DNA of 64,000 nt from an uncultured Verrucomicrobiae bacterium (GCA_963788655.1 CAWBHS010000090.1:133431-197430); one strand, 5' to 3'; positions 2,908-63,254 are shown, counted from the stretch's first letter. Translations and numbers: made by a program. Notes: generated by a model from the letters alone, not told the origin.

Positions 2908-3128
2908 ACGTTCCCAGTGCGGATGTAAACTGCTGTGTGCAAACTATTTATCGACCGCCGCAAATTTTCTTGAAGCGCCAAATTCAACGAATGCCTTAAC
3001 CAGTTTTAATGTGTGGCTGAAACCACGGCGCGAGGCTGGGGTGCCTTGCCGCATCGCCCCGCGCTTTACGCTAGCGGACCGCCGGCGCGCGACTTGAGCG
3101 CTCGATGCAAATCCCAGACACTGCGGCA

Positions 3129-25083: not shown

Positions 25084-25136
25084 GTCTTCTTCTTCCTGCG
25101 CTGTTGCGTCGCCCAGACGCCCGATGACGAAAATGA

Positions 25137-25235
25137 GTAGGTCGGGTTAGCGAAGCGTAACCCGACAATCCAAACCGCTCAGATTACGCATCTATGTCGG
25201 ATCGTAGGTCGGGTTAGCGAACGCGTAACCCGACA
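25137..25235 (+). repeat. Two tandem GTAG-type REPs (25137-25167, 25204-25235)
   Basis: GTAGGTCGGGTTAGCGAAGCGTAACCCGACA twice. Confidence 0.85.
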
Positions 25236-25367: not shown

Positions 25368-26676
25368 TCATGAATAGGATTTCAGATTTAAGGTGCGCTG
25401 AATTTTTTCGCGCACGACATCCGGCACGCCTGCCTGTTCTGCAAACGATCTCCATTTCGATACCGTCGCCTGCACCTCGGCAACGATTTTCGCGGCGCGC
25501 CCCCGTTTCATCGAAGCAGTCTTTGCGCAGGCGTTGAAGTCCTCCATCGTGAAATCGTCGCGTTTTCCATTCATCGTCATCTGATGGCTCGCCGTCCACG
25601 CACCCGCAGGATTAAAGCTGTAGGTCATATCAAAGGCCGGCGATAGCGACCACTCACCGGATTTATTCATCAGGAAGGCGATATTCTTCACGTGGTCATC
25701 CTGATTGCGGGCCACGATGTTGAATACCATGCGCCGAAACAGTTGCTCGATGGCCTGCATGGGCAACTGCAGTTGCCGCATCACCAGCAACGCCTGCTCG
25801 TAGCTATAAGCGCCTGCCATATTGAAATCGTAGTGCGCCAGGGCGCAAAGTGACTGCATGTGAAGTTTTTCGCCGCCGGCAAGACGATCAAAGCGGCGCG
25901 TCATGAAATGCGACCGGCCATTCTCTTTAAACAGCCGGCATTCACTGATTTCAATGCCGCATTCAAGCGCCATCAGGTAATACGCATACTCGATCAGCCC
26001 GTAGCCTTTCGGGTCTTCCAGTTCCTTATCCTTGTTGCCACTGACGCCGTCAAATTTCAGCAGCCAGTATTCAAATCCCTTGCCGGCTTTGACCTGGCCA
26101 GACCGCACTTCATTGGTTTTCGGGTTCCATGCGATGACCGCCTTCGCCCTCGCGCCACCGGCGGAGGTGCCCACGCGCAGAATATCCCTTAGCGCCTCTT
26201 CGCTGCCTTCATCCGCAAAAGACGCCTGCAGGTTATTCCGGTGGGTCAATATCTCCGATGCAAGCTCAACCAACTGGCCGACCTCAATGTGGCGTGGTCT
26301 GCTTTGCCTTGGGGCCGATCGCGGGGGCAAATTCCAGCGCACCCATGCCGCGTTCACCGGTATAGCAAAGCCGCTCAACCGCGTTGAAGGAATCCGGTTG
26401 CCGCCCCTGCGATGCCAGCCAGGCATCGATCAGCGCGTTGCCAAATTTGTCGGGCAGCGAGTCGGCCAGCAGGCCGGGCAGCCCGAGAAAAGTCGGGCGG
26501 GAAAGCTCGGGGAAGCGGTACACGCGCCGGGAAAGTGGCATCACAATCGGCGCGACTTGAATGCCGCTTTGCGCGAATGCTGCATCGTATTCAAAGCTGG
26601 CGACGTCCTCCCCATCCTGCAGCGAGACAGCGCCGATGGTTTTGCCCCACAGCCTGACTTCGGCAAGCGTGCTCAT
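25368..26676 (-). CDS. hipA: HipA family Ser/Thr kinase toxin (frameshift near 26290)
   Basis: LADSLPDKFG, GTSAGGARAKA, LLKFD, RFDR, NQDDHVKN, LSPAFD. Confidence 0.92.
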
Positions 26677-27168: not shown

Positions 27169-27402
27169 TATATTTATTACTCAACGCGCCCTCGGCTCCA
27201 GCGGCTTCGGAATCGGTTGTCGTGCGGAGAATAGCAATTCTGATCTCCGCAATTTATACGGAGTTTATCCTTGCGCCTGCGGCGAATTGGAGTTGAACGC
27301 GGCGCATCGCGTGTTCGAGACAACCCAAGCACACCGGTACTCGCGCATGTGCGATGCCGCTGCGCATGAACTTGCACTTGCGTTAGCGTAGATCGGGCTA
27401 AC

Positions 27403-27594
27403 GTAGGTCGGGTTAGCGAAGCGTAACCCGACAACCCACACCCGAGTTGCCACCCGTAGGTCGGGTTCGCGCAGCGTAATCCGACAACCCAAACCGCTAG
27501 AATTAGAAATGTAGGTCGGGTTAGCGAAGCGTAACCCGACAACTCACACCCGAGTTGCCGCCCGTAGGTCGGGTTAGCGCAGCGTAACCCGACA
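27403..27594 (+). repeat. Array of four GTAG-type REPs with A-B-A linkers
   Basis: Units start at 27403, 27456, 27511 and 27564; linkers 1 and 3 nearly identical. Confidence 0.88.
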
Positions 27595-31658: not shown

Positions 31659-32828
31659 ATGAAAAGGAAACTCCAGGGACACTATGCCACGGTGTCGGTG
31701 GGCGGCGAAGACGTGCGCGCTTTCGTCCCCGCTCCATTACCCCCGCAGCCGCCTATCGATTGGTCGCCGGCGTTGCGTGGGAAGTTCGACCAGGCATTGT
31801 TGGCGCTTGGCCGTCTCGACAGCGTCTGCTTCCTGCTGCCGGATACGTCGCTCTTCCTTTATATGTATGTGCGCAAGGAAGCCGTGCTCTCGTCAATGAT
31901 CGAGGGAACGCAGTCCTCGCTCTCCGACCTGCTTTTGTTCGAGCTGGACCAGGAACCGGGGGTACCTCTGGATGATGTGCAGGAAGTCAGCAACTATGTG
32001 GCTGCCCTGAACCACGGCTTGAGCCGCCTGGCAGAGGGCTTTCCTTTGTCGTTGCGGCTCATCAAAGAAATGCATTCGGACCTTCTGACCAAACGAAGAG
32101 GAAGCAAGCAATCCCCGGGCGAGTTTCGCCGCAGCCAGAACTGGATTGGCGGCACTCGCCCCGGCAACGCTGCTTTCGTGCCGCCTCCGGCCCAAGACGT
32201 CTTGGAATGCATGGGCAAGCTTGAGCTGTTCCTGCACGATCAGCCTGAAGCCACGCCAATTCTGCTGAAGGCCGCGTTGGCTCATGTGCAATTCGAGACC
32301 ATACATCCGTTCCTCGACGGCAATGGCCGCATCGGTCGGCTGCTGATTACGTTGCTACTGTGCGAACAGAAGGTGCTCCGCCAGCCCATGTTGTACTTGA
32401 GCCTCTACTTCAAAACGCATCGCCAGTATTACTATGAGCTGCTCGACAACGTTCGGCAGACCGGGGATTGGGAAGGCTGGCTGGATTTCTTTGCCGAAGC
32501 GGTCATCGTGACCGCGGGACAAGCAGTGGAGACTGCCCAACAGCTTCTTGAGTTATCCAAGAACGACCGCACGAAGATCAGCACCCTTGGCAGGGCTGCG
32601 CCGTCGACCTTGCAGGTGCACAACGCGCTGATGGAGCACTGCGTCGCGACCTCCGCGTGGCTGACACAGAAGACGGGCCTAACCCCTGCAACAGTGAACA
32701 AATGTCTGGCCCACCTGGAACGTCTAGGCATCGTGCGCGAGCTGACTGCCCGGAAGCGCAACCGCGTGTTCAGTTATGGGGAATATGTGGAGATCATGAA
32801 TCGTGGCACGGAGTTGCCGGGCGGGTGA
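31659..32828 (+). CDS. Fic family protein with C-terminal HTH
   Basis: EAVLSSMIEGT inhibitory motif; HPFLDGNGRIGR catalytic motif. Confidence 0.92.
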   Translation: MKRKLQGHYATVSVGGEDVRAFVPAPLPPQPPIDWSPALRGKFDQALLALGRLDSVCFLLPDTSLFLYMYVRKEAVLSSMIEGTQSSLSDLLLFELDQEPGVPLDDVQEVSNYVAALNHGLSRLAEGFPLSLRLIKEMHSDLLTKRRGSKQSPGEFRRSQNWIGGTRPGNAAFVPPPAQDVLECMGKLELFLHDQPEATPILLKAALAHVQFETIHPFLDGNGRIGRLLITLLLCEQKVLRQPMLYLSLYFKTHRQYYYELLDNVRQTGDWEGWLDFFAEAVIVTAGQAVETAQQLLELSKNDRTKISTLGRAAPSTLQVHNALMEHCVATSAWLTQKTGLTPATVNKCLAHLERLGIVRELTARKRNRVFSYGEYVEIMNRGTELPGG

Positions 32829-32946: not shown

Positions 32947-33390
32947 TCACGAAATCAGTTCTGGGCGATGATTTCTCAGCCAGTCGGTCACCTCGCGCAG
33001 TAGGTCTTCCGCTTCGCGAATGCAATTCGCGGCAGAGATGTCGTCAACGTCTTCGCCCAAATAGTCCGATAGATTCCGCTTCCGCCGATACGTGTCCAAC
33101 ACGACCATGCGGCTCCTCGCAAGGCCAATAGTCGTTGGCAACGACTGCAACACGGTCATGTGGTGCCCTGGCCTGTTCGTATCCGGTCGATAACCGTTCG
33201 CCAGGAGTGCGGTCAGGGCCGACTGCATGATCGCCTTGTAGGCTGCATCAAAGCGCGTTTCGGCGCTGACCTCCTTCACATGGGCATCGGCGAGGTTCCG
33301 CGTTGCGGCGTCCAACAGACGTCGGACTTCGGTTGCGTCAGTGACGTGGCTTTTCAGCTGCCCGATCTTTAGTAAGTTTTCCAAGGTCAT
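32947..33390 (-). CDS. HEPN-like domain protein
   Basis: RFDAAYKAIM, GYRP..GHH, RRKRNLSDY; directly downstream of the MNT gene. Confidence 0.72.
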   Translation of the reverse strand: MTLENLLKIGQLKSHVTDATEVRRLLDAATRNLADAHVKEVSAETRFDAAYKAIMQSALTALLANGYRPDTNRPGHHMTVLQSLPTTIGLARSRMVVLDTYRRKRNLSDYLGEDVDDISAANCIREAEDLLREVTDWLRNHRPELIS

Positions 33391-33964
33391 TAGCTGTCCC
33401 TAGCAAAAACAGTTTCGGTTCCTTGAGTATTCGGCTAACGAATCGATCTCCGTCGGCACACTTCTTCATGAAGTCGGCCTTCGGCATCACGACCGGATTC
33501 ACCTCCCGGCCGAGACGTTGGTGCGTCTCGGCGAACGCTTCCACCACGTTTGCAAACGATGCCGAACCGACGACGAACACATCTACGTCGCTGGTCGCGC
33601 GCTCCTTACCTTGGGCAACGGAACCAAACACGAACGCCAGGTCGATCTTCGCCGCGAGCGGCGTCAACGCCTCGCGCAGCACATCGGCAAGCCCGGTCGT
33701 CTTGCGAAAGAATCCCGCAAGTTCCGCAAACACCGGAGACTCACGGTTGGCCTGGTAACGAACCTGGTTGCCGGTGACTTCACGCACCAGGAGGCCGGCC
33801 TCCGCAAGCCGCTTCAACTCGCGGTGCACGGACCCCGCTGGCACCTCCGCCAGCCGGCCAATCTCCCGCACGTAAAAGCTTTGCTCCGGCCGGAGCAACA
33901 GCAATGACAGAACACGCCGGTGATAGGCGCTGAACAGAACCTCGGCAGGACTGGTTTCGACCAT
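33338..33964 (-). CDS. wHTH-nucleotidyltransferase antitoxin
   Basis: N-terminal wHTH (YVREIGR..VHRELKRL); FVFGSVAQG..SDVDVFVVG. Confidence 0.85.
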   Translation of the reverse strand: MVETSPAEVLFSAYHRRVLSLLLLRPEQSFYVREIGRLAEVPAGSVHRELKRLAEAGLLVREVTGNQVRYQANRESPVFAELAGFFRKTTGLADVLREALTPLAAKIDLAFVFGSVAQGKERATSDVDVFVVGSASFANVVEAFAETHQRLGREVNPVVMPKADFMKKCADGDRFVSRILKEPKLFLLGTANDLGKLTKDRAAEKPRH

Positions 33965-34613: not shown

Positions 34614-35693
34614 TTACAGCAGCCGCGCAATCTCGTCGGCACTTTCCAGCGCCCCCTCGATAATCCCGCCATACTCCCGGGCCGCTTCCGTGCCGGCCAG
34701 CGACAGGTAACCATCCAGCACTTGCCTGGGAGCCGACGGCGCATAATGCGGGTGCTGATGCGGTCCGGCCAGGTCCGCCTCGGTGGTGGTATGCGCCTCG
34801 CCGCTCCAGTCCTTGACGATGATCTTTTTGACTTCCCTGGCCCCGGGCCCGAAGAGCTGCTCGAGCTGCGCCATGCTGGCCTCGATCAACTGCGCCTCGC
34901 CGATCTGCCGGCGCTGCAGCGCATTGAGCCCCACAAACGAGGTCAGGGCATAACCTGCCGCGGCGCCCGATGACGCATAGGGCGAGCCGTCATAGACCTC
35001 GGTCAGCGGCCCACGCTGACTGAACGCCTCGCCAGACAGACCCTGCTCACGCCAGAACGGCGCGTCATATAGAAACAGGATTTTGCAGTGCCCGGCCATC
35101 CAGGTCGGCACGGCCTGCCATTGCCGCCGTATCGCCTCGTCCACATCGGGCGTGAGCTCGACAGACTCCGCCAGCAGGCGCAACGGCATGGCCGCGATCA
35201 CCTTCCCGGCCTCGAACTCCGCGAGCGCATCACCGCTGCGCGCGGTGACCGTCCGCGTGCTCGCGTCGATCGCGCACACCTCGGTATTCAGATGAATCGA
35301 CGCACCCAGGCCATCGGCCAGCGCATCCACAATCGCCTGCGCGCCGCCGACGATACGGTATGACTCGCTGTGCGGCGAAGGCCCGGCGTGTCGCTGCACA
35401 CGGCCATCCGGCCCCTGCCGCAGGCTGTCGCCGTCAACCGTTTGTGCAAAGACCTCGATATCGAGCTCTTCCAGCAGCCGGGACAGGCGCGGCTGCAGTT
35501 GCGGCCACACCCATGCCGGGCCCAGATCGACACGGGCGTTGCGCTCCGCATCGGTCCGCTCCGACACAATCCGTCCGCCCACCCGATCCCGGGCCTCGAG
35601 CACGCTGACCGGGTAACCCCGCTGCTCCAGAACCCGGGCCAGGTACAGGCCGCTTAAACCGGCCCCGATGATGACAACGGAATCACGACTCAA
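34614..35693 (-). CDS. Flavin monoamine oxidase family protein
   Basis: GAGLSG, EARDRVGGR, DLGPAWVWP, AGTE..GGIIEGALESA. Confidence 0.88.
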   Translation of the reverse strand: MSRDSVVIIGAGLSGLYLARVLEQRGYPVSVLEARDRVGGRIVSERTDAERNARVDLGPAWVWPQLQPRLSRLLEELDIEVFAQTVDGDSLRQGPDGRVQRHAGPSPHSESYRIVGGAQAIVDALADGLGASIHLNTEVCAIDASTRTVTARSGDALAEFEAGKVIAAMPLRLLAESVELTPDVDEAIRRQWQAVPTWMAGHCKILFLYDAPFWREQGLSGEAFSQRGPLTEVYDGSPYASSGAAAGYALTSFVGLNALQRRQIGEAQLIEASMAQLEQLFGPGAREVKKIIVKDWSGEAHTTTEADLAGPHQHPHYAPSAPRQVLDGYLSLAGTEAAREYGGIIEGALESADEIARLL

Positions 35694-35739
35694 GATACGA
35701 CACCGGGTTCAGCAAATGCCCCTGCTTGCGCCATACAGA

Positions 35740-35801
35740 GATAAAGGGGTCGGTGACAAATGCGAATCATCAATGTTTTCAGTTGTCACCGACCCCTTTA
35801 G
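35740..35801. repeat. Hairpin element, copy 1
   Basis: TAAAGGGGTCGGTGACAA-N23-TTGTCACCGACCCCTTTA, perfect 18-bp arms. Confidence 0.9.
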
Positions 35802-35807
35802 TTCCCT

Positions 35808-36062
35808 TCCACCGTCCTGGGTACGCTTGAGTTCGATGACCACCGGGTTTCCCTCCTTGTCGAGACCAAGAAGGTCGATTCGCCGGCGGCTATTCTCCCA
35901 GTCGCCAAATTCTTCCGAGATAATCAGCGTGTCCGGCGCTATGACATCGATCTGCCGCTTGAGCAGCTGCTGGATGTGGTCACGCTCCCTGAAACCGGCG
36001 TCCGCGAAACTGGTTGACTCGGTCTCGCTCAACCCAGTATCTGTGACTTGATATATGGCCAT
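35808..36062 (-). pseudogene. NucS/DUF91-like PD-(D/E)xK nuclease, 3'-truncated
   Basis: RRIDLLGLDKEGNPVVIELKRTQDGG, then ends at the hairpin; the paralog at 39626 continues GGHMELQ. Confidence 0.8.
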
Positions 36063-36148
36063 GTCTGCATTCCCTATTATGAGCGCCTTATGCCGGCGGG
36101 GGAGATTGGTCTATCGTTTCCGCTCCACAGCATCGGTACGTTCCCGGG

Positions 36149-37363
36149 TTAGACTTCCTCTAAAATTCTCTCCAGCCGCGGCCTGAACACGTTTACGAAT
36201 CGGTTGATGCGATCACGGAGGAATGCCTTGATGTCATCCCGGTGCTCCGATGCGCGGATATCCGGAAAAGATTTGCGAGCCGCAATCGCATGCTTGGCGC
36301 CATTGCTTTCCCAGCTCACCTCCACTCCCAATTGTCGTTCGATTTCGTCCCGCTCCTCGAGTAGGCGCGGATACGCTACATCGCCGAAGCCACCCCGGAC
36401 AAAGGTTAGAAAGACTCCAACTTCGTTGCGCGCACGAAGGAAATAGACCGTCAACCATGCCTGACTGCTAGACGGTGGCATTTGAAAGAATGCGTTTCCG
36501 ACCTTTGTGACCTTTGCCATTGGCTGTGACGGATCATCCAACCGCAGCGAACCGAGAAACTCCTCCCAGAACTTTTGGTAGAAAACCTCGTCTGCGCTCG
36601 GCACGCGGTCAGCATCTTCCGGCTCGGGGGTTTCCTCCACGACGACTTGACCTTCCTGAAGAGAAACAACCGATCGTTTTATGATCACCGACTTCGCTAT
36701 CACTCTGGGCTCGACCAATAGCCCGCCCCCGGGCCAGCGAAAGACGCCAAGCTCGACCAGCCCGAACGTGAAATGCAAATTGGCAAACCGATCTAGAAAC
36801 TCCGCGATCGCGCCCACGCCCTCGCGGATTCCGTCTCCGACGATCACCAGCAGAAATTCGCCCTTACGGAGCGAACGTGCTACGGCGTCGTGAAACGTTG
36901 CTTCATCAAGACCTGGGTGAACGGAAGCAACTATGTCGTGCAGTCGGTCGCCCGCCCTACCCGTCGCCTGAGATATTGCACGCTGCAGGTCTTCATACCC
37001 CCACCGCGAAACCTCCTTGGCGTAGTCCAGTATTTGGCCGACGACCTTTCGCCGCGCCTCGGGGTTGCGCCAGAGCTTCGCCTCGAGAATGGCTAACTTC
37101 CCCTGAGGTGTGACGTAGAGAGCATCTATTGGGCCCGCAGGGGTGTTCAGTTCTCGACAGACGGGAATCAGCCCCAAGTACGCCCGGTCAATTTCCGCAA
37201 CGGGAAGACACTCAGGATGCTCGAAAACGAGAGCCTGTAGCCACGCTTCGTCAAAATGCCCGCCATTTGCTGCCCCCGACAGTGGGACGCGCTCCAGCGG
37301 CTCGGCGCACCCGTCTTCCGGCACCACAAGCGGTGTCGCATACTGAGAATCCGCTATATCCAC
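36149..37363 (-). CDS. NucS-like PD-(D/E)xK nuclease with DUF4268-like C-terminus
   Basis: DEAWLQ, GPIDAL, ILEAKL, RKVVGQILDYA; C-terminal YQKFWEEFL...ERDEIERQLG. Confidence 0.72.
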   Translation of the reverse strand: MDIADSQYATPLVVPEDGCAEPLERVPLSGAANGGHFDEAWLQALVFEHPECLPVAEIDRAYLGLIPVCRELNTPAGPIDALYVTPQGKLAILEAKLWRNPEARRKVVGQILDYAKEVSRWGYEDLQRAISQATGRAGDRLHDIVASVHPGLDEATFHDAVARSLRKGEFLLVIVGDGIREGVGAIAEFLDRFANLHFTFGLVELGVFRWPGGGLLVEPRVIAKSVIIKRSVVSLQEGQVVVEETPEPEDADRVPSADEVFYQKFWEEFLGSLRLDDPSQPMAKVTKVGNAFFQMPPSSSQAWLTVYFLRARNEVGVFLTFVRGGFGDVAYPRLLEERDEIERQLGVEVSWESNGAKHAIAARKSFPDIRASEHRDDIKAFLRDRINRFVNVFRPRLERILEEV

Positions 37364-37392
37364 AGCCCCCTCCCAAACAAGTTCGCACCCGA

Positions 37393-38295
37393 TCAGCCAC
37401 CTTCGTAGGCACGCCGGATCAGGGGCTTCGCCTTCTCCAGGTCCACGACGGTGCCCACCGTTAGCTCCAGGTCCCCGGTCCCCCAGTGCCCGATCTTGCG
37501 CACGTCCCGTGTGAACCCCTCTTCCGATTTCACGGTATCTGGATCCAGGGAAAGTATGAGCAGCAACCTGCTCTTTTGGATCACCACAGACATGAAGTTG
37601 CGAAGCCGCTTGAAAGCAACGTAAAGCTTAAGATCCTTTCGCTGGACGTCGTCTCCCAGCGAAAGCACGTAAGCTTCGAGCGAGTCGAATAGCTCTCGGA
37701 TTTCCGGACCCATCTCGACCAGCGCTTGCACGAGGGGCTTATCCCCACCTGACTTGGCCGCCTTCGTGGGCTTGACCACCGATCCCGAGGCTGTCGTGGC
37801 ATTCACCAATTCAAGCAATAGCAAGTCCGACCCGAACTTCTTGTAGCGAACCAGCTCAATGTTTCGGTTCATCTGCTGCACGGCGTGCGAGTCATACTTC
37901 GTGAAATCGCTCGCGATGCACACTAGGCGGGGCGCGGACCAATCGAGCGTGTCTGCGACCGCATGGCCCAGCCGCTCCATCACCAGGAGCTTGAACTCCG
38001 CCTGATGATCCATAAGCCAATCGAGATAAAAGAGGCCCTGGTTGATTACGTTCTCGCTGACGTAGCGCTTGTACTCGATGATTACCGGGCAGGCATTTTC
38101 ATCCAAACCGAGGCTGTCGATGCGCCCGCCATGCGTTTTTCCCGTGGAGTATTCGGTTGCTAGGAACCGCACGCCCAAGAGCGGCTCCAGATTACTCTCG
38201 ATCAGCGCCTGCAACGGCTTCTCCAGATCGGAAGCCTCTCCTTTAAGTTCTATTGCTTGATCTGCAGATACTTGGAATAGTTTGATATCGCTCAC
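37393..38295 (-). CDS. DUF91 (NucS-like) plus DUF5655 domain protein
   Basis: EKPLQ, GRIDSLGLDEN, IIEYKR, NQGLFYLDWL; C-terminal KLYVAFK, RDVRKIGHWGTGD. Confidence 0.82.
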   Translation of the reverse strand: MSDIKLFQVSADQAIELKGEASDLEKPLQALIESNLEPLLGVRFLATEYSTGKTHGGRIDSLGLDENACPVIIEYKRYVSENVINQGLFYLDWLMDHQAEFKLLVMERLGHAVADTLDWSAPRLVCIASDFTKYDSHAVQQMNRNIELVRYKKFGSDLLLLELVNATTASGSVVKPTKAAKSGGDKPLVQALVEMGPEIRELFDSLEAYVLSLGDDVQRKDLKLYVAFKRLRNFMSVVIQKSRLLLILSLDPDTVKSEEGFTRDVRKIGHWGTGDLELTVGTVVDLEKAKPLIRRAYEGG

Positions 38296-38420
38296 GAAAT
38301 GACTTCCTCAGGAACCCCCAGATCACCTACGATCTCCCGAAACTGCTCCAGCGCCGCCTCCAGGTCCTCCACAATCTCCTGGGCGATGACTTCCGGCGCC
38401 GGGAGATTGTCCGACTCCGA
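38292..38420 (-). pseudogene. hsdM: Last about 42 codons of a type I methyltransferase (HsdM)
   Basis: SDNLPAPEVIAQEIVEDLEAALEQFREI, a typical HsdM tail; begins at hairpin copy 2. Confidence 0.72.
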
Positions 38421-38422
38421 AG

Positions 38423-38484
38423 GATAAAGGGGTCGGTGACAAATGAAAACATTGATGATTCGCATTTGTCACCGACCCTTTTAG
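38423..38484. repeat. Hairpin element, copy 2 (loop inverted relative to copy 1)
   Basis: GATAAAGGGGTCGGTGACAAATGAAAACATTGATGATTCGCATTTGTCACCGACCCTTTTAG. Confidence 0.9.
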
Positions 38485-38570
38485 TCGCTTTATTACGTTA
38501 TTCCCATCTTATGCCAACCGGATTATCTTGGTTGAAGAGGTCGGTGACATTTACGAATCAACTTGAATGT

Positions 38571-39626
38571 CTATAACGTACTCTCGGAGCATTCGATACC
38601 GTGATCGCCAAAAGCCTCAACTAGCTGCATTAAGCCTTTCTTTGCCCGAGCACCCCATTTGGCGGAAACGGCATAGGTACGGCCGTTCGCGTAAATAAGT
38701 TCGTTATCAGCAAGAAAATAGCGCATGCGCGCTGGGTCTTTACCTTCCTTCTGCCATCGTTCGATTAGCTGTTGCTCGAAGGCTTCCGACTCTAATCGAC
38801 CCTCAAAATCCGCAAACAGGCTTTTCCGCCATGCAAGCGCTTGGCGAATCTCCTCTGGATCCACGCCTTTTTCGCACAGATAACGCACGACTTGGAACAC
38901 GGCTTGTTCTCGCCGCAATTCTTTGAAGGTCTCTTGACCAACTGAAACATCAAAGCGCGCTACATCAGGCATCGAGGTGCGTGAAGCTCGTGAACGTCGC
39001 GCTTTTTCACCCAAGCTAACCTGATACTCCGCCGCCTCCGGCAGCGGTATCAGTTGCTGCACATCTAGAAGCGTGTCGTCACCATATTGGTACGGTCGCA
39101 TACGAACGCAACGAATATTTAATCCACGTTCATTTAGCCACAACACCGAGGTCGTAATCTCCTTTGAAAACTCGGCACTTGCAAGAACGATGCGTACGTC
39201 TTGCGCGAACCGATCTTCCTCCGGCTCATCCCACTCCAAAAATGTCAAAAGACTTTCGTATGCATCTTGATCCGAACCAATCGATTGCAAGTAATTCTCA
39301 AAAACGTCACCGCTCGCTCAAAAGTCATCGCCGATATCATTGCGGCATATCGCAGGGATTGAAGCTCCATATGTCCGCCATCGTCCGTACGCTTTAGTTC
39401 TATAACGACCAAATTACCCTGTTTATCGACCCCTAAAAGATCGATCCGCCGATTGCTGTCCTCCCACTGCGAGAACTCTTCACAAATCACCAGCGTGTGC
39501 GGCGAAATAACTCTATTTGCGCTTTCAAAAACGCTGTAAGTCCTGCCGCTCGCGCAAACCCGCTTCAGCGAAACTAGTTTGGGACACTGTATGCAGCCCG
39601 GACTCGGTGATTTTATAAATCGTCAT
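38571..39626 (-). CDS. NucS/DUF91-like nuclease (frameshifts near 39530 and 39300)
   Basis: MTIYKITESGL, RRIDLLGVDKQGNLVVIELKR, ELQSLRYAAM, FSKEITTSVLWLN, QLIPLPEAAEY. Confidence 0.78.
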
Positions 39627-39743: not shown

Positions 39744-40656
39744 TCAAAGTTCTGCAAAAAAATCGATATCGACCGCTTTGATTTCGTACGATTGCTTAGT
39801 GGTCACGCCCACGCAATGCTCGATCATCAAATCCGCTAACGTGTCTGCGCCGATTAGAATTATTTTCGCGTCGATCGCTCCTACGTACTCGATCGCTTCT
39901 TTCGAAAAATTCGAAGTGGTGATGAAAACGCCTTTCCGCGCGCGTTTACCTTGTAATGCACCGGCGAATTTCTGGATCTCTGGGCGCCCCACGGTCGCGC
40001 CGTCTTTCCAACGTTTCGCCTGTACGTAGATGATATCCAGTCCAAGCCGATCTTCTTTGATGATACCGTCAATGCCTTCATCGCCGCCGCGCTGGAAAGC
40101 TTCCCCCGCCTCCTTTCGGGACCCGCCGTAACCCATTTTTACCAGCAAATCGATAACCAAACGCTCGAACGATTGCCACGATACGGCTCGCACTTGGTCC
40201 AACAATTCCGCGACTAGCTCGCGGCGTAAGCTGCGCATATGCCACATCGATCAACTCATCCGGCGTGGCAGAGGACTCTGTTGCGTCCTGCTCCCCCGCA
40301 TCGGACTGCTTTTTCGACGTGCGAAACTCCTGAAATTCCGGGAATTGATCCAAGTATTTATTGTCTATCCGCGATGGGTTACTTACCAATACTTGCTGTC
40401 CGCGCGCAGTAATGCGAAACACACCGCGGCGCACCGAATCGATCAGACCCGCTTTCTTCAAATAGGTGCGAGCCCATCCTACGCGGTTATCGAACATTGC
40501 TTGATTTCCACTAGGCAGCAGCTCCTCACGCTCATCGCCCGTTAATGAGAAAAAGTCGGCAAGCGAATCCCGTAATTGCGCGATCGGATGATCCGCGCCG
40601 TCTTCTAACTCGCGCAGGAGAGGCAGCATGATCGATTGGTAGTCTGGTATAGCCAT
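39744..40656 (-). CDS. mrr: Mrr type IV restriction endonuclease (frameshift near 40235)
   Basis: MAIPDYQSIMLPLL, NRVGWARTYLKKAG, GGDEGIDGII.EDRLGLD.IYVQAKRW. Confidence 0.93.
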
Positions 40657-40797
40657 GAATTCCCCCCGGGAGAACGATCTAATTCGTCTCAAGTCAGAAT
40701 TGAACGTGGTGACTCGCTACTTTTTGTTTATTAGCGTTATTCGTGGTTCGACTCTGATTTTCGTTATGGTGAACACTCGAAAACGGAAGAAAAACTC

Positions 40798-40909
40798 GGG
40801 TCGGAACACAGTTTTCTCTACTACAGTTGGAAACTTGATTTACCACGTGAATTTATCTAGTACGCGAAGCGAGCGCGTTTCTATATTAGCGTTTATTGTG
40901 TTCCGACCC
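40798..40909. repeat. 13-bp inverted repeat GGGTCGGAACACA/TGTGTTCCGACCC
   Basis: Arms at 40798-40810 and 40897-40909; resembles the arms of the 35740 and 38423 hairpins. Confidence 0.75.
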
Positions 40910-40918
40910 CGATTGTTC

Positions 40919-40939
40919 TTGATAATCCGGTATGGCCAT
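40919..40939 (-). pseudogene. Seven-codon stub of a second mrr allele
   Basis: ATGGCCATACCGGATTATCAA = MAIPDYQ, synonymously different from the intact mrr start; just downstream of hsdR. Confidence 0.7.
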
Positions 40940-41012: not shown

Positions 41013-44000
41013 TTACTCTTGCTCCCTCACTCGCCGGAAAATCTCCTGCGCCAGGTGATCATGGGCTGCCGAGCGAAACTCCGCATCCGTCATCACTCGA
41101 GAGAAGATTTCTTCGTTGCCTTCCATGCGCGCGATGAACAATTCATCCAGCATGCGATCGAAATAGGCGGCGAAGTTCGCGAAGTTGTTGGCGCGGGCCG
41201 CCTCCGCGATATTCTCGTCGTTTTCCGCCGAGGCCCGGATCTGGTCGAAGAACAGCTGATCCGCCTCAGTGAAGTCGGTGCCGAAACGCTCGTTGAGGCG
41301 ATCGATCAGGCTTGAAAGGGCAACCTCCTCGTCCTTGACACGCGCCGGTGCCCACATCGGTCGGCCCCTTCAGCGGATAGGCCTCCCCCTGCGACGAGGT
41401 CGATGGAGCCCTCGGTCATCTGCTGCAAGCCGGAAATACCGCAAGCGCCACCTCATCATCCAGCACGAAAGCGTGACCATCACCCGGCGGCGGGAGCTTC
41501 GCCAAGAGATTCCGCACAAAGGTGTAGAGCCGTTCGAGATCGCTGTCCTGGTAGGGGATGATCTGCGACAGGAAGGCGTAGAGGTTTCGATAGGCCGTCA
41601 ACTGGCCGCGAAATTCCTCCCGCTCTTCTTCATCCCGGTCCTGAAAGCGCTGCACGACAGCATCGAGCACGGCGTTCATCACCCGATGATCGCTCGCCGA
41701 GTGATCACGCTTGCGGCGGTACCAGACTTCGGCGAAGGCGGTCACATCGGCCGGCGTGAAGATCGCCCATTCCAGCAGGCGGTGTTGCAGCTCCGAGAGG
41801 CGCTGCGGATCGGCATTCTCGCCGACAGGCGTTGTCTCATAGTAGGGCTTGAACGCCTGGTAGATGTCATCTTCCTCGTTGGCGAAATCGAGCACGAAGG
41901 TGCGCGACTTGCCGGGCGCGATGCGATTGAGCCGGGAGAGGGTCTGAACCGCCTGCACACCGGCCAGCCGCTTCACCACATACATGGTCTGCAACAGGGG
42001 CTGATCGAAGCCGGTCTGGTACTTCTCCGCGACCAGCAGAACCCGGTAATCCTCCCGCTCGAAGGCCTCGGGCAACTCGCTCTCGGCAAGCCCGTCGTTC
42101 ATCGCCACCTCGGTGTAGGACGAACCGGGATCATCCGGGTCTTCGACCGTTCCCGAGAAGGCCACCAGCGATCGGATGCCGGTGTAGCCTTGATCCTTGA
42201 TGTAGCGATCGAAGGCGAGCTTGTACTTCACGGCCGCCAGGCGCGAGCCGGTCACCACCATCGCCTTCGCCCGCCCGCCGAGCTCGTGCATCACATAGAG
42301 CCGGAAATGCTCCACGATGACCGAAACCACCTGCTCGATATTGACCGGATGCAGCTCCAGGTAGCGCGTCAGGGCCTTCGCGGCCTTCTTGCGCGGCACA
42401 TCGGGATCGTTCTCGACCTGCTTGATCAGGCCGAAGAAGCGTTTGTAGGTGGTGTAGTTCTGCAGCACGTCCATGATGAAGCCTTCCTCGATGGCCTGGC
42501 GCATGCTGTACTCGTGGAAGGGCGACGCGCCGGACGGGCCGGGCTCGTCGAACAGGGCCTTGGTCTTGAACTTCGGCGTGGCCGTGAAGGCGAAGAAGCT
42601 GAGGTTCGGCTGCCGGGCGCGCTTGAGCGCATCGCGCAGCACCGCCGCCTTGGCTTCATCGGAGAGGTCGTCGTCCTCCTCCTCGGACAGCTGCGCGGCA
42701 ATGGCCGCCTCGATCCCGTGCTTGTTCAGCATGCCCTTCAGCGCCGTCGCGGTCTCGCCGCTCTGGGACGAGTGCGCCTCATCGACGATGACGGCAAAGC
42801 GCTTGCCCGCCGTGTCGATCTTCACGCCACTGCCCTTCTTCTCCAAGGTCGAGAGCGCCTGCGAGATGAAGGGGAACTTCTGGATGGTGGTGATGACGAT
42901 GGGCGTACCCTGGGACAGCGCACGGGCGAGCTGCTGCGTGTCCTCGTCGATCTTCTCGACCACGCCGGTCTTGTGCTCGAACTGGTAGATGGTCGCCTGC
43001 AACTGCTGATCGAGCACGCGCCGGTCGGTGACGACGATGACCGAGTGAAACACCTTCTCGTCCTGCGCGTCGTGCAGGCTGGCCAGCCGATGCGCGAGCC
43101 AGGCAATGGAGTTCGACTTGCCGGAGCCGGCCGAGTGCTGGATCAGATAGTTTCGGCCCGCGCCATGGGCCCGTGCGTGCGCCACCAGCTTGCGCACCGC
43201 ATCGAGCTGGTGATAGCGCGGAAAGATCATCGTCTCCTTGCGCACCGTGCGCACGCCCTTGTCGGTCTTGACCTGCTTCTCCTTCACTTCCAGGTGCATG
43301 AAGCGCTGCAGGATTTCCAGCAGGCTGTCGGCCTGCAGCACCTCATCCCAGAGGTAGTGGGTCTTCCAGTTGCCCTCGACGGGCGGGTTGCCGGCCCCGT
43401 GGTTGTTGCCCCGGTTGAAGGGCAGGAAGTGGGTCTCCTTGCCCCTGAAGCCGGGTCGTCATCCAGACCTCGTCCGGGTCCACGGCGAAGTGGACCAGCG
43501 CGCGCTTCTTGAACGCGAAGAGCAGGTCGCGCTCGTCCCGATCGACCTGATACTGGTGCATCGCATCGGCGGCGCGCTGCCCGGTGAGCGGATTCTTGAG
43601 CTCGGCGGTGACCACGGGGATGCCGTTGACGGCCAGGGTCACGTCGATAATGCAGCGCCGGTTCTTGCCGTCGGCCTTCTTCATGACCGAGGTGAAGGCG
43701 ACCTGGCGGGTGATCGTCAGCCGGTTTCTGGCATAGTTCTCGGCCGCCTCCGGGTTCATGCGGGTGTTCGGCCGGAAATAGGCCATGCGGAAGGTCTTGC
43801 CGTAGCATTTGAAGCCATGGCGAAGGACATGCAGCGTGCCCTTGATCTCCAGCTCCTTCGAGAGGCTGTCCAGCACGGTCGCGACGTCTTCGGCCCGAGC
43901 AGCGCCTCAAGCGCGGCCCACTTGGCCGGCTGGCTGTCCTTCAGGAAGCCGGCGACATCCTCGGGGAAGAGCGCCAGCGCCTCGTCATAGGCGCTCGGGT

Positions 44001-44080
44001 TGCGCTTCTCGATAGCCGCCGGAACTGGTCAGCCCGGCCTCGATAGCCGTCTCGAAATCACGTTCCGTATGGCCGGGCAT
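41013..44080 (-). CDS. hsdR: Type I restriction enzyme R subunit (several frameshifts)
   Basis: AELKNPL, FPRYHQLDAV, QHSAGSGKS, VDEAHSSQ, AFTATPK, KYQTGFDQP, AVQTLSRLNR. Confidence 0.93.
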
Positions 44081-53717: not shown

Positions 53718-53896
53718 TTAGGCTCCTCAGTGTAGCACGTGAGCATCTAGGGCGATGCTACCAGCTATTGGGCCGCTGTGCAGGGTTGGCATGTGCAAAG
53801 CGAGACGAGGAACCCGCCGACTGGGACCTGTTTCTTGGATTCATCCGAGAAAGAACATGGAGCTGCGGGAAAAGCAGGGTGACTGGCTTGGCATCC

Positions 53897-54201
53897 ACTT
53901 GACGCGCACGTCACCCCAGGCGTAGCATCGTCCTGCCCACCCCACCCGCCCCCCTCCTCCCCGGGCGGATGGCTGGGCGGTCGAGAGCATGGCTACGCAA
54001 CCTGACGTCATCCGCCTGTACACGATCACGGATCTCTCCGAGGAGCTCGGGGTGACGCCCCGGGCGATCCGGTTCTACGAGGCGAAGGGGCTGTTGGAGC
54101 CTCAGCGCCTGGGGCAGAACCGCGTCTCCACGTACCGTGATCGGGCCCGGCTCTTGGTCATCCTCCGCGGCAAGCGCTTGGGGTCTTCCTTGCCCCGGGT
54201 C
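53897..54201 (+). repeat. 305-bp direct repeat of 63163-63467 (merR promoter plus truncated 5' CDS from 53989)
   Basis: Colinear at a constant offset of 9266 bp; frame diverges after GKRLG..L.RV. Confidence 0.9.
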
Positions 54202-55017: not shown

Positions 55018-55326
55018 CCGGTGCGCACCCTTCGAGCAGCGCTTCACCGACCATCGTGGGAGGCTCCCGCGTTTCCTCCACCGCTGGCGCCGCGAGGCTC
55101 TTCGTCGCGGGCCTGATGCTCCCGGTAGTTCTGCTCCAGGTTGTTCCAGAAACCGGCGGGCACTCCGAGAACCCGTTCCAGTTGTAGCGCCGTCTCCGGG
55201 GTGATCGCCGCCTTGCCCTGGATGATCTCGGTCACCGTCTTCTTGGGCCGACCCATCCGCTCCGCCAGGTCCGCCTGCGTCATCTGGCGCTCGTCGAGAA
55301 CCTCTTGGAGGGTCTCGCCCGGGAGG
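55018..55326 (-). pseudogene. higA fragment with internal deletion
   Basis: MTQADLAERMGRPKKTV...FWNNLEQNYREH, near-identical to 61513-62637. Confidence 0.8.
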
Positions 55327-57524: not shown

Positions 57525-57748
57525 GCTCCCGCACCTCGATGCGGAAGCGCCTGCCGATCCTCCGCCTGAATCGGACGCGTAGAGACTCCTCCTTCGGAAC
57601 ACCACGTCCCCTTGCCAAGCCGGCGAGGTGCCAGGGAGCTCGAGGACCTCGACGATGCGGACCCGGCTCAGTGGCGGCAGCTCCGGCCACCGATACGGCG
57701 GGGCGCACGTGGTGTACGGTCTCCGAGTCGACGACGCGAGGAGGACCG

Positions 57749-59200
57749 ATGCCGCCAGCAGACCGAACCGGCCGCAATGATCCGTGCCCGTGCGGGAGCG
57801 GGAAGAAGTACAAGAAGTGCTGCCTGCCGAAGGAGAAGGAGGCGCGGCGGGAGGCGGAGCGCCAGCCCCCGGGGTACGACCCGGTCGAGCGCGCCCTGAA
57901 GTGGCTCGACGGGCGCTATCCGGGCGAGATGGCGGAGGCGCTCCATGGGCACTTGGCGCTCTCTGTCGAGGACGCGATGGACCGCGTGGAGGAGCTTCCC
58001 AAGGAGCTCCGCGGCATGGTGGTCGCCAATTCGAACGAGTGGCTGATTGCCGACGGCGCGCTGGCCCTCGACGAGGGGGACGTCCCGGTGCGCGAGCTGC
58101 TGCTCGGCCCCGGCGGGCCTCTCTACGACGCCGAGCAGCGGGCCTGGATGGAGGCCCTCACCTCCCGGCCCCTGGGCTTGTACGAGGTGCTGGAGACGAC
58201 CCCGGGGACGGGCTTCCGGGTCCGGGACCTCTTCCACCCTGACGAGCCGCCGATCGACGTCCGGGAACGCTCGGCCTCGCAGACCATCGTCCAGTGGGAG
58301 GTCCTCGGCCTCCGCCTCGTGCCCTGGAAGGGCGATTGGCTCGTGGCCGGCAGCATCTACCCGCTCTTCCGGGACGCGGACTTTCCCGAGTTCCTGCGCG
58401 ACCTGCGGGAGGAGCTGGCCCAGAAGGCCGGCGGCGATCCGGAGCGGGAGCGGGTGTTCCTGTCGGTCGCGATTCCCCAGGAGTGGCTCCTCCAGTTGCT
58501 GGAGCCGCGGGAGCTCCCGGAGCCGGTCGACGCCGCCACCGGGGAGCCGATCCTGCTGGTCACGGACCACTACCGGGTGCGGAGCTGGGAGCGCCTGGAG
58601 GCCGCGCTGGCGGGCCAGCCCGACGTGGAGGGCAGCCGGGCGGACGGCTGGACCCGCTTCGAGGAGGTCGACGACACGATGCGCCGGAGCCTCCTCGGGA
58701 TCAACCCGGGGCGGGGCGATCGCCTCGAAGTGTTCGGCCGGACCCGCAGCCGGGCGGACGAGGGGCGGGAGTGGCTCGAGGGGGTGGCAGGGGACGCCAT
58801 CGAGCACCGGACCCGGGAGATCGTGGACCCGCGCAGTGGCCTGGACGGGCCGGGAGGCGGACCGCCTGCCTCAGCCGGACCTCCGGGAGGGGCCGGAGCT
58901 CCGGGAGCCGGCGCAAGCGGACGGGGCGGCGCGCCCATCCCCATGCCCACCGAGGTCATGCAACAGGTCCTCGAAGGCCACTACAGGGACTGGGCCGAGG
59001 ACCCCATCCCGGCCCTCGACGGCCGGACCCCGCGGGAAGCGATCGAGACGCCGGAGGGTCGCGCGGCGGTGATCGGCCTGCTCAAGCTCTACGAACAGGG
59101 CGAAGCCCGCTCCGCCCGCAAGGAAAACCGCGAGCCGGCGAGCCTCCAGTTCCTCTGGGACGCCGTCGGGCTGGACCGGGACGAGGCGCTGGGCGGGTGA
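57749..59200 (+). CDS. SEC-C motif protein with C-terminal MbcA/ParS-like domain, copy 1
   Basis: GAGGAGG RBS; GRNDPCPCGSGKKYKKCC; WAEDPIPALDGRTPREA. Confidence 0.82.
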   Translation: MPPADRTGRNDPCPCGSGKKYKKCCLPKEKEARREAERQPPGYDPVERALKWLDGRYPGEMAEALHGHLALSVEDAMDRVEELPKELRGMVVANSNEWLIADGALALDEGDVPVRELLLGPGGPLYDAEQRAWMEALTSRPLGLYEVLETTPGTGFRVRDLFHPDEPPIDVRERSASQTIVQWEVLGLRLVPWKGDWLVAGSIYPLFRDADFPEFLRDLREELAQKAGGDPERERVFLSVAIPQEWLLQLLEPRELPEPVDAATGEPILLVTDHYRVRSWERLEAALAGQPDVEGSRADGWTRFEEVDDTMRRSLLGINPGRGDRLEVFGRTRSRADEGREWLEGVAGDAIEHRTREIVDPRSGLDGPGGGPPASAGPPGGAGAPGAGASGRGGAPIPMPTEVMQQVLEGHYRDWAEDPIPALDGRTPREAIETPEGRAAVIGLLKLYEQGEARSARKENREPASLQFLWDAVGLDRDEALGG

Positions 59201-59675: not shown

Positions 59676-60032
59676 GGTACAAGCTCCTTTGGACGGCGCG
59701 TGCGAGCAAGGACCTGAAGAAGCTCGATCTCAGGAAATGGCTCGGGTCGGAAGGGCTGGGCGGAGGCAGCAGCGCTCGAGATCTACCGAGCAGGTCACAG
59801 GGCCAAAGCCTACTGACTCCTGAGAGGTAGATGGCGGGGCGCAGCGCTTCCGGGAGTTGGGGAAAGCCCTCCTTCTGGTGCGCGACCTTGTCGTCCTTCC
59901 GAAGTCGCACGTGATATCCAGTCGTGCTCCGCTGGGCCAGCAGGTTCACGCGAGCCTGGTACCGGGACACCCACGTGAGCTTGCAGGGTGCACGTGGAGT
60001 ACGGTTCCGAGTGGACGACGCGAGGAGGACCG

Positions 60033-61468
60033 ATGACCCCGAGTGACCGAACCGGCTGGAATGATCCGTGCCCGTGCGGGAGCGGGAAGAAGTACAAGAA
60101 GTGCTGCCTGCCGAAGGAGAAGGAGGCGCGGCGTGGGGCGGAGCGCCAGCTCCCGGGTACGGCCCGGTCGAGCGCGCCTTGAAGTGGCTCGAGACGCGCT
60201 ATCCGGACGAGTCGGAGAAGGCGGTCCACGGGCACTGGGCGCTCGCCGGCGAGGAGGCGATGGAACGCTGGAGGAGCTTCCCGAGGGGCTCCTCCGCATG
60301 GTGGTCGTCAACTCGAACGAGTGGCTGATCGCCGACGGCGCGCTGGCCCTCGACCAGGGGGACGTCCCCGTGCGTGAGATGCTCCTCGGCCCCGGCGGGC
60401 CGCTCTACGACGCCGAGCAGCGGGCCTATGGAGGCCCTCACCTCCGGCCTCTGGGCTTGTACGAGGAGCTGGAGACGACCCGGGGACGGGCTTCCGGGTC
60501 CGGGACCTCTGCCACCCTGACGAGCCGCCGATCGACGTCCGGGAACGCTCGGCCTCGCAGACCATCGTCCAGTGGGAGGTCCTCGGCCTCCGCCTCGTGC
60601 CCTGGAAGGGCGATTGGCTCGTGGCCGGCAGCGTCTACCCGCTCGTCCGGGACGCGGACTTCCCCAAGTTCCTGAGCGCTCTGCGGGAGGAGCTGGCCCG
60701 GGAGGCCGGCGGCGATCCGGAGCGGGAGCGGGCGTTCCTGTCGGCCGCGATTCCCGGGAGTGGCTCTCCCGGCTGTTGAAGCCGCGGGAGCCGGAGCCGG
60801 TCGACGCCGTCACCGGGGAACCGATCCTCCTGGTCACGGATCATTACCGGGTGCGGAGCTGGGAGCGCCTGGAGGCCGCCCTGGCGGGCCAGCCCGACGT
60901 GGAGGGCAGCCGGGCGGACGGCTGGACCCGCTTCGAGGAGGTCGACGACACGATGCGCCGCAGCCTCCTCGCGCTCAACCCGGGGCGGGGCGATCGCCTC
61001 GAAGCGTTCGGCCGGACCCGCAACCGGGCGGACGAGGGGCGGGAGTGGCTCGAGGGGGTGGCAGGGGACGCCATCGAGCACCGGACCCGGGAGATCGTGG
61101 ACCCGCGCAGTGCCCTGGACGGGCCGGGAGGCGGATCGCCGGGTTCCGTCAGACCTCCGGGAGGGGCCAGAGCTCCGGGAGCCGGCGCGAGCGGACGGGG
61201 CGGCGCGCCCATCCCCATCCCGACCGAGGTCATGCAACAGGTGCTCGATGGCCACTACAGGAACTGGGCCGAGAACCCCATCCCGGCCCTCGACGGCCGG
61301 ACCCCGCGGGAGCGGTCGAGACGCGGAGGGTCGCGCGGGGTGATGGGCCTGCTGAAGCTCTACGAGCAGGGCGAAGCCCGCTTCGCCCGAAGGAAGGCCC
61401 GAGCCTGCGACCTCCAGTTCCTCTGGGACGCCGTCGGGCTGGACCGGGACGAGGCGCTGGGCGGGTAG
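60033..61468 (+). pseudogene. SEC-C protein copy 2 (many frameshifts)
   Basis: Colinear with 57749-59200, including the upstream RBS. Confidence 0.8.
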
Positions 61469-62965: not shown

Positions 62966-63164
62966 AGATCACTCGCAGGTCAACCGTGTCATTAACCCCT
63001 GCCGTTAATCGAACTGAATCCACGGTACCCGGTCCAGCGTTGTCAGTCAAGTGTCTTCTGAAGGTTTGAACCTGGGTCCGCCGACGGCTGTCCTCTCGCG
63101 CAGTACGGTCTGCCTTCAAGTCGGGATGGAAGCCGCGTTGCGGCGTGACCTCCGCGCCAACTAC

Positions 63165-63194
63165 TTGACGTGCACGTCACCCCGGGCGTAGCAT
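63165..63194 (+). promoter_or_regulatory. merR/liuR promoter with palindromic operator
   Basis: -35 TTGACG, 18-bp spacer, -10 TAGCAT; perfect palindrome TGACGTGCACGTCA at 63166-63179. Confidence 0.68.
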
Positions 63195-63254
63195 CGTCCT
63201 GCCCACCCCACCCGCCCCCCTCCTCCCCGGGCGGATGGCTGGGCGGTCGAGAGC

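Follow-up and report, generated by a model that had tools for sequence, protein, structure and literature searches.

The DNA analysed here, a stretch of 64,000 nucleotides from an uncultured Verrucomicrobiae bacterium (GCA_963788655.1 CAWBHS010000090.1:133431-197430, referred to as a whole as the window), contains two inverted hairpin repeats, HP1 (35742-35800) and HP2 (38425-38483), each of which adjoins a truncated gene in a restriction-modification (R-M) island. HP1 and HP2 are very probably arm dimers of the TIRtron type, a class of elements in which terminal inverted repeats (TIRs) flank a transposase gene, here one of the Y1 (HUH) kind. The fuller reading, in which the hairpins are TIRtron arm dimers and the segment between them is the remnant of a type I R-M operon cut by deletions ending at the hairpins, is held with moderate confidence, and the cuts most likely reflect ordinary genome decay, not a new machinery for shuffling genes. 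An unannotated hairpin at a breakpoint is thereby tied to a concrete system of marine and sulfur-oxidising Gammaproteobacteria, a widespread Y1 element with 21-nt inverted ends and arm-dimer derivatives. The interest of this system rests on the breadth of the family and on whether the hairpins promote the deletions they border, and current understanding is not overturned.

Two inverted hairpins at gene breaks

A repeat search of the 64-kb window identified HP1 and HP2 as a 59-nt inverted pair with 97% complementarity and 2624 nt between its members, HP2 being the HP1 element in inverted form with 57 of 59 positions complementary to it; neither is assigned to a strand. HP1 consists of 18-nt arms (21 nt with one mismatch) around a 23-nt loop, and each copy compared with itself forms a hairpin of 21-nt arms, 95% complementary, with 17 nt unpaired between them. 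Folding as single-stranded DNA gave -19.4 to -22.0 kcal/mol (z from -6.6 to -7.8), and 0 of 200 shuffles folded as well. The 23-nt loops of the two hairpins are mutual reverse complements with one mismatch, and the copies are therefore inverted relative to one another. An initial annotation of the same DNA had described 62-bp hairpins with such loops at both ends of the segment; the inverted pair and the loop relationship were borne out, and the length is corrected to 59-61 nt. No duplication is shared by the outer flanks of HP1 and HP2, a weak criterion since Y1 elements generate no target duplication.

The same annotation had placed a cut gene just inside each hairpin, and this holds for both. 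Inside HP1 lies NucS-like gene A (35801-36062, minus strand), of which about 87 N-terminal codons are left, its open reading frame (ORF, 35709-36062) continuing through the hairpin. The gene aligns with positions 39626-39374 of a NucS-like paralog, gene B, to residue 85 of 87, with 74% identity over residues 40-85, after which the ORF enters HP1; its match to Pfam NucS_C (E 0.0012) is below the cutoff. Inside HP2 lies an hsdM remnant (38292-38424, minus strand) comprising the last 43 codons, one more than had been counted, and the stop codon, with its 5' side ending at the hairpin. These codons (38295-38423) match the C-termini of class I SAM-dependent (HsdM-type) DNA methyltransferases (tblastn best E 2e-4, 81% of the query), and the frame extended through HP2 runs into stop codons.

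The arm word, allowing up to two mismatches, occurs six times in the window against 0.60 expected, a count reached by 0 of 100 shuffles, and the window holds two arm dimers and one degenerate single arm. The latter is a half copy (38537-38570, no strand assigned, in HP1 orientation) that the annotation had correctly recognised at about 38537, and it is composed of one arm with two mismatches and the start of the loop, the second arm being absent. It lies 53 nt from HP2 and directly 3' of the stop codon of gene B, and gave no folding signal (z +0.3 and +0.7). Single arms with a loop and no second arm, like this half copy, are also present in two loci of other genomes (L019 and L059). A further arm that had been suggested near 18235 is a two-mismatch word without a partner arm, which is at chance level. 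An Rfam search with the hairpins returned no family at threshold and only three sub-threshold microRNA-like matches.

A dispersed hairpin family

A pattern scan of 185,579 reference genomes for two 11-nt arm cores 10-40 nt apart recovered a hairpin family with at least 134 sites in 129 loci, nearly all of them in Gammaproteobacteria; the source genome of the window was not among the matches listed, and flanks were examined for 80 of the loci. Carriers include Thioalkalivibrio, Thiogranum, Thiohalobacter, Sedimenticolaceae, Thiodiazotropha, Porticoccus, Oleiphilus, Arenicella and numerous metagenome-assembled genomes (MAGs). At least one match, in Liquorilactobacillus (L077), from which the conserved flanks are absent, is probably due to chance. 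A search of a plasmid collection with the hairpin gave no match.

The family consensus is AAAGGGGTCGGTGACAA - loop - TTGTCACCGACCCCTTT. Outside the search pattern, A is conserved in 117-124 and G in 126-134 of the roughly 139 copies, and the right side mirrors this, such that AAAGGG precedes and CCCTTT follows the element in 117-134 of about 139 copies. The conservation of these bases beyond the pattern used to find them establishes the family as real. Loop lengths across 140 copies are 11 nt (27 copies), 13 (1), 17 (53), 23 (39), 29 (1), 31 (1), 34 (17) and 35 (1), a series that climbs mostly in 6-nt steps. Loops tend to be common to the copies of one genome and to differ between genomes, so that the near-identity of HP1 and HP2 is expected of any two copies from the same genome. 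The 129 loci contain 126 paired hairpins and 25 unpaired arms, some of the latter being paired with an arm that carries a mismatch, and the densest cluster comprises up to five copies within 10 kb (L037).

The loop consensus resembles arrays of GAnAAT-type hexamers. A reading of the loops as Fur boxes was rejected as weak, the 19-nt consensus matching on average 10.9-12.7 of 19 positions against 9.7-10.6 in shuffled sequence, and the loop of the window matching 11.

A Y1 transposase gene between hairpin arms

Clustering of 779 flank ORFs revealed, as families recurring beside hairpins, only generic ones (GGDEF/EAL, ABC, histidine kinase) and one further cluster, found in four loci, which Pfam identifies as IS200-like Y1_Tnp. 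The arrangement is clearest in a Thiogranum MAG (L072, 8033-8872), in which perfect 21-nt inverted arms of the hairpin family, 798 nt apart, enclose a gene for a 236-aa Y1_Tnp protein (8136-8846; Pfam Y1_Tnp 49.8 bits against a cutoff of 23). Two features of its sequence, an H-V-H triplet and a Y-x-Y-I-E-L-N-P stretch, are taken to be the HUH and catalytic-tyrosine motifs. The inner 11 nt adjoining the left arm match the commonest loop motif at nine of 11 positions, and the short hairpins therefore look like internal-deletion derivatives of an L072-type element.

HP1 and HP2 would, on this evidence, be derivatives similar to miniature inverted-repeat transposable elements (MITEs), formed by internal deletion of an insertion sequence (IS)-like element with TIRs around a Y1 gene of about 234-236 aa. 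The Y1 enzyme would act in trans on the hairpin in single-stranded DNA, by analogy with IS200/IS605 and with the REP-associated tyrosine transposases (RAYTs) of repetitive extragenic palindromes (REPs). A non-autonomous repeat served by an HUH enzyme in trans had already been proposed for this locus, and relatives support it, both through the arms that flank Y1_Tnp in L072 and through a truncated homolog in Thioalkalivibrio sulfidiphilus ALJ17 (L008) that lacks about 40 N-terminal residues and directly adjoins a hairpin. Next to this truncated gene, at 9976-10070 of L008, the arm shows partial tandem duplication, with two copies of a 12-nt unit on one side and two of a 24-nt unit on the other, which suggests slippage at the hairpin.

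Y1-like sequence is present within 5 kb of a hairpin in six of the 129 loci (L008, L028, L036, L054, L064 and L072). The Y1-like sequences of L028 and L054 are bounded by other arms, that of L036 is identical in sequence to that of L028, and flanking arms were sought around that of L064 with none identified. The different inverted arms of L054 (153-755) and L028 (709-1513) also begin with an A-run followed by GGGG, a hint that there is a broader group of sister TIRtron families, each with arms of its own.

The best-scoring NCBIfam model for the Y1 proteins is REP_Tyr_transpos, yet all scores are below its cutoff of 80, at 64-71 bits for three proteins and 36.9 bits for the L036 fragment; transpos_IS200 gave 21-23 bits against a cutoff of 55 (21 bits for the L072 protein). 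No C-terminal helix-turn-helix (HTH) domain was detected in the L072 protein by Pfam at E up to 1. The protein has at least 8000 relatives at E of 1e-10 or lower; the top 120 have identities of 61-100% and lengths of about 223-250 aa. These 120 derive from taxa that bear the hairpin (Thiogranum, Oleiphilus, Thiodiazotropha, Sedimenticolaceae and Chromatiales), and the names among them are 'transposase', 'putative transposase' and, once, 'REP-associated tyrosine transposase'. Three Y1 clusters come from a single 4.8-Mb Alkalimarinus contig, and many relatives are on contigs of 0.8-1.2 kb.

Comparison with known repeat systems

RAYT-like genes flanked by TIRs, a sister class of REP/RAYT, have been named TIRtrons and their enzymes TIRYTs, some of the TIRs carrying the motif GGGGWSAS, and moderately abundant families of dispersed TIR repeats have been described that occur as singles, dimers and clusters with a REP-like organisation (Di Nocera et al. 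2013, PMC3733652). The present family resembles these in its dispersed singles, dimers and clusters and in the Y1 gene of L072, a relative from outside the genome of the window, whose TIRs are the same as the dispersed hairpin arms. The arm core GGGGTCGG fits GGGGWSAS at seven of eight positions, with G instead of A at position 7, in a motif that is not obligatory. Most TIRYTs have been placed in subclass 2.1, all members of which have a C-terminal HTH (Quentin et al. 2018, PMC6006769). The L072 protein differs from those members in having no HTH that Pfam detects. To our knowledge, TIRYT elements have been little studied since 2013. The hairpin and its Y1 gene are also far more widespread than the 'limited number of genomes' mentioned in 2013 (PMC3733652). 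Word searches of the literature returned no relevant paper for the arm sequence, which the supplementary TIR lists of PMC3733652 could already contain.

Inverted REP doublets that form hairpins are known as REPINs (Bertels & Rainey 2011, PMC3116915), and the present hairpins are similar to them in comprising two inverted units with a short spacer, in being mostly extragenic, in having genome-specific loop subfamilies and, in L072, in flanking a Y1 transposase gene. They differ in that the arm AAAGGGGTCGGTGACAA contains neither a GTAG nor a CGTC tag and has no palindromic core, with only a 3-bp self-complement, and in that the Y1 protein falls under the NCBIfam RAYT cutoff. The Y1 gene also seems to be multi-copy in at least one genome (Alkalimarinus), whereas RAYTs are typically single-copy (PMC5581495). 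A separate, classical GTAG-tagged REP family of about 31 nt, starting GTAGGTCGGGTTAGCG, is present in the window between 16350 and 34188 in 9-11 copies, for example at 25120-25167 and as four tandem copies at 27386-27594, and includes a cluster spaced at 53-55 nt.

The short non-coding MITEs of IS200/IS605 elements likewise retain ends recognised by a Y1 HUH transposase acting in trans. IS200/IS605 elements have subterminal hairpins and no TIRs (PMC6006769), in contrast to the hairpin family, whose ends are TIRs that pair together and whose Y1 proteins are sub-threshold for the transpos_IS200 model. Integron attC sites form one-orientation arrays beside an integrase and have the cores RYYYAAC and GTTRRRY. 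An integron attC or cassette identity was rejected, as the copies in the window are inverted, those elsewhere are scattered on both strands among ordinary genes, and the arms lack these cores.

The large hairpins formed by REP dimers stall replication and are a source of instability, with SbcCD requiring a stem of 8-16 bp, and REPs lie chiefly between co-directional or convergent ORFs, to which REP ends can provide stop codons (PMC3733652). The joints considered here are likewise at a hairpin-forming repeat, with a stem of 18-21 bp that exceeds the SbcCD requirement. The difference is that the proposed deletions here would end beside hairpins that are a possible, not an observed, cause of them.

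Genomic context of the family

The context census was based on greedy non-overlapping ORFs of at least 90 aa, which is a crude form of gene calling, and on 71 copies with at least 700 nt of flank on each side. By this measure 66 of the 71 copies are intergenic and five lie inside an ORF, a class for which gene pairs offer no comparison; the ORFs that contain a hairpin have no Pfam match. Convergent-gene gaps hold 23 of the 71 copies (of all 650 adjacent gene pairs in these loci, 133 are convergent), co-directional gaps 31 (390 of 650) and divergent gaps 12 (127 of 650). Where a 3' end faces the hairpin, the median gap is 29 nt (n=77), compared with 93 nt for a facing 5' end (n=55), and in several loci the stop codon of the adjoining gene is supplied by the element's own TAA. 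Loop orientation did not follow the direction of the adjacent gene (10 same, seven opposite, p 0.63), a further 27 loops being too symmetric to orient.

Some of these features would suit resident, non-mobile regulatory hairpins, either bidirectional terminators or a protein-binding palindrome, that stand at operon ends by chance. The hairpins have an A-tract upstream and a T-tract downstream, lie close to facing 3' ends and are found in convergent gaps at a higher proportion than gene pairs are, and a stem followed by a run of 3-5 T is present, with a loop of 11-35 nt. The origin is nevertheless highly improbable, since an identical 18-nt stem recurs at non-orthologous sites in many orders, where inheritance in place is impossible, and the arms flank a transposase gene. 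Moreover, 12 of 71 copies are in divergent gaps, a simple consensus terminator scan flagged none of the hairpins, and no Rfam family reached threshold.

The neighbours of the hairpins are ordinary genes. A Pfam scan of 115 neighbour ORFs from 13 multi-copy loci returned, among others, phosphate porin, MCRA, UPF0114, DeaD helicase, superoxide dismutase, TonB receptor and dehydrogenases, and no relatives of the R-M island of the window were found in the 129 loci. Fifteen Pfam-matched ORFs have their 3' ends no more than about 65 nt from a hairpin. In 12 of them the final domain extends to the profile's end, two are ambiguous, and one, the HSP70 fragment of L045 (profile positions 388-486 of 599), is clearly cut short. 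In L045 an IS110-family transposase gene (1075-2754) lies between two hairpins, its stop codon overlapping one of them and the HSP70 fragment standing beside the other, and the IS110-family element may have targeted the hairpin.

The family is not specific to defence genes and is not as a rule tied to gene truncation, because most copies are intergenic and their neighbours are ordinary and mostly whole. These results lend no support to the proposal of the initial annotation that the hairpins capture or shuffle slices of defence loci. Copies lying only between intact genes had been named there as the pattern that would speak against it, and this is the situation of most copies, not of all.

The restriction-modification island

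Every gene between 34.6 and 44.1 kb is on the minus strand. To the left of HP1, at a distance of 48 nt, is a flavin amine oxidase gene (34614-35693) with a GC content of 0.66-0.69, a core-like flank. Between the hairpins, the two truncated genes enclose two intact ones. The first encodes a 404-aa protein (36149-37363, minus strand) with a C-terminal Pfam DUF4268 domain matching profile positions 2-139 of 140; the protein has 97-100% query coverage in six plasmid records, and relatives of the gene are standalone and close to other defence genes. The second (37393-38295, minus strand) encodes a 300-aa NucS-like protein with Pfam DUF5655, its start overlapping the stop codon of the hsdM tail, and is matched at 80% coverage or more in 29 plasmid records. 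Relatives of the DUF5655 gene are located within or beside type I R-M operons, including one Cupriavidus plasmid with the order M-S-DUF5655-R.

The type I R-M island around the hairpins is broken, as hsdR, the Mrr gene and NucS-like gene B contain stops or frameshifts. Gene B (38571-39626, minus strand) is full length at about 350 codons and lies in three frame pieces, equivalent to two frameshifts. The Mrr-type restriction endonuclease gene (39744-40692, minus strand) is in two overlapping frames, with Pfam Mrr_N and Mrr_cat on separate ORFs. The hsdR pseudogene (41013-44071, minus strand) is covered over its full length with in-frame stops and at least two frameshifts, and is 42% identical to the hsdR that follows the DUF5655 gene on the Cupriavidus plasmid. 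Probing of the whole window with two plasmid M and S proteins revealed neither an hsdM body nor an hsdS at E of 1e-3 or lower, these probes being distant enough for weak remnants to escape.

GC content steps at both hairpins, from about 0.67 to 0.55-0.60 to 0.47-0.53, and reaches 0.62-0.65 in hsdR. Exactly at the step between the Mrr segment and hsdR is an inverted repeat (40787-40920, no strand assigned) in which arms of type GGGTCGGAACACA, about 15-17 nt long, enclose a loop of about 80 nt. Membership of the hairpin family was rejected for this repeat, as its likeness to the arm is limited to GGGTCGG and its arm word had no matches in any of the fetched hairpin loci.

Frame breaks are also present elsewhere in the window, in an ABC-transporter operon (3105-5437; ATPase and OpuAC-type binding domain) that lies in overlapping frames with Walker A on a separate ORF from the rest of the ATPase. 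They point either to pseudogenes beyond the defence island or to indel errors of sequencing. As frame breaks may thus be sequence errors, the argument from a decayed island is weakened, while the gene truncations are not affected.

Origin of the truncations

The 2.7-kb stretch between the hairpins would, in the favoured reading, be the remnant of a type I R-M operon and its accessory NucS, DUF5655 and DUF4268 genes, and not a transposon. One deletion, between HP2 and the hsdM tail, would have taken out most of hsdM, and a second the rest of NucS-like gene A together with downstream sequence, probably including hsdS, up to HP1. The 43 retained codons of hsdM would keep the translation start region of the overlapping DUF5655 gene. 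Candidate routes for the deletions are breakage at the hairpin, recombination between copies or a reaction of the transposase. Long perfect palindromes are hotspots of breakage and deletion, and dispersed identical copies are substrates for recombination. Deletions ending at hairpins are favoured because arm-adjacent deletions recur in the family, in the short hairpins relative to the L072 element, in the truncated Y1 gene of L008 and in the single arms of L019, L059 and the window; insertions and deletions in an island already broken would also be free of cost. Whether deletions made the cuts in hsdM and NucS-like gene A, as against insertion plus transfer, is evenly balanced.

The principal competing history, which is possible and on balance unlikely, is that hairpins inserted into hsdM and NucS-like gene A and then recombined with further copies, one upstream of the amine oxidase gene and one downstream of gene B, with the loss of parts of both genes. 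At 97% identity over 59 nt, HP1 and HP2 are long enough for such recombination, copies in relatives are commonly clustered at spacings that range from a few hundred nt up to a few kb, the degenerate half copy is 53 nt from HP2, and REPs inside genes have been documented (PMC3733652). This history requires, however, four copies, two of them intragenic, and only five of the 71 copies in other genomes are inside an ORF, none confirmed by Pfam; nor was the reciprocal junction found in the window.

A simple inversion between HP1 and HP2 was rejected. Both possible histories were worked through, and in neither do the hsdM tail and the NucS stub meet a matching half; after the hypothetical flip, the flank in which a gene half is expected is occupied by the region upstream of the amine oxidase gene or by the spacer that precedes gene B. 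Flipping the segment thus restores neither gene, and the reciprocal halves of hsdM and NucS-like gene A were not found in the window.

The model of the initial annotation, in which the inverted hairpins are the ends of a composite unit moved here whole by a Y1 transposase, is improbable. It draws on the likeness between inverted arms around a cargo and the succession of arm, Y1 gene and inverted arm in L072, on the contrast between intact inner genes and broken flanks, and on a GC content distinct from that of both flanks. There is no second copy of such a unit in the window, in the 129 loci or on plasmids, where DNA matches cover no more than 18% of the query, at about 70% identity. The genes within the sole further inverted pair observed (L048, members 4.4 kb apart) show no evident truncation, the remaining pairs are direct repeats around ordinary genes, and no demonstration of transposition by a TIRYT element appears in the passages on these elements in PMC3733652 and PMC6006769. 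Slightly more doubtful again is the specific version in which the 2.7-kb block (hsdM tail, DUF5655, DUF4268 and NucS stub) is a cargo-carrying pseudo-TIRtron moved by a TIRYT supplied in trans. Were this true, a pseudo-TIRtron would represent a single-strand, HUH-driven route for moving pieces of defence islands.

It is similarly improbable that the breaks are an assembly artefact, in which the 59-nt repeat let the assembler join non-adjacent flanks and omit the missing gene parts. The two sites carry an identical or nearly identical repeat that is widespread in related organisms, the GC steps coincide exactly with the hairpins, the frame breaks in the transporter operon hint at draft-quality sequence, and many Y1 relatives are on contigs of 0.8-1.2 kb, as seen with collapsed repeats. 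Even so, the junctions between gene and hairpin would stay real, and hairpins inside hsdM and gene A would still need an explanation. Hairpins of this type are markers of rearrangement joints and possible assembly traps, and their proper annotation is as repeats and not within ORFs.

Several observations weigh against the reading of the hairpins as TIRtron arm dimers bordering deletions. A Y1 gene is flanked by arms of the hairpin family in only one fetched locus (L072), whose protein scores 64 bits against the cutoff of 80 for REP_Tyr_transpos and had no match in a PDB sequence search. As had been noted before, no transposase is found in the window itself, tblastn with four Y1 relatives giving a best E of 0.33 and Pfam scans, which did not cover every ORF, detecting no transposase of any kind. 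Truncated genes adjoin each of the full copies in the window (two of two), against one clear truncation in 15 elsewhere, an unusual coincidence that the deletions would explain only by inference. Two intact inner genes with broken neighbours and a GC content that differs on both sides are also what a recently arrived block would look like. The broken ABC-transporter operon hints that part of the apparent decay of the island may be sequencing indels, and 12 of the 71 copies in the census are in divergent-gene gaps, subject to the crude ORF calling.

Other defence-type features of the window

To the left of the R-M locus, the window contains further defence- or addiction-type genes (25368-26426, 31659-32828 and 32947-33964), namely a HipA-like kinase, a Fic/DOC protein with an HTH, and a nucleotidyltransferase + HTH gene that overlaps a small partner ORF. 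To its right, between 53874 and 63439, are several long direct repeats that are 84-96% identical (among them 57722-58816 and 60006-61090; 53874-54173 and 63140-63439; 55099-55326 and 62366-62593). The genes amid these repeats encode a SEC-C-motif protein, a nucleotidyltransferase and a protein with HTH and Peptidase_M78 (IrrE-like) domains, and the repeats look like duplicated defence or toxin-antitoxin-like modules.

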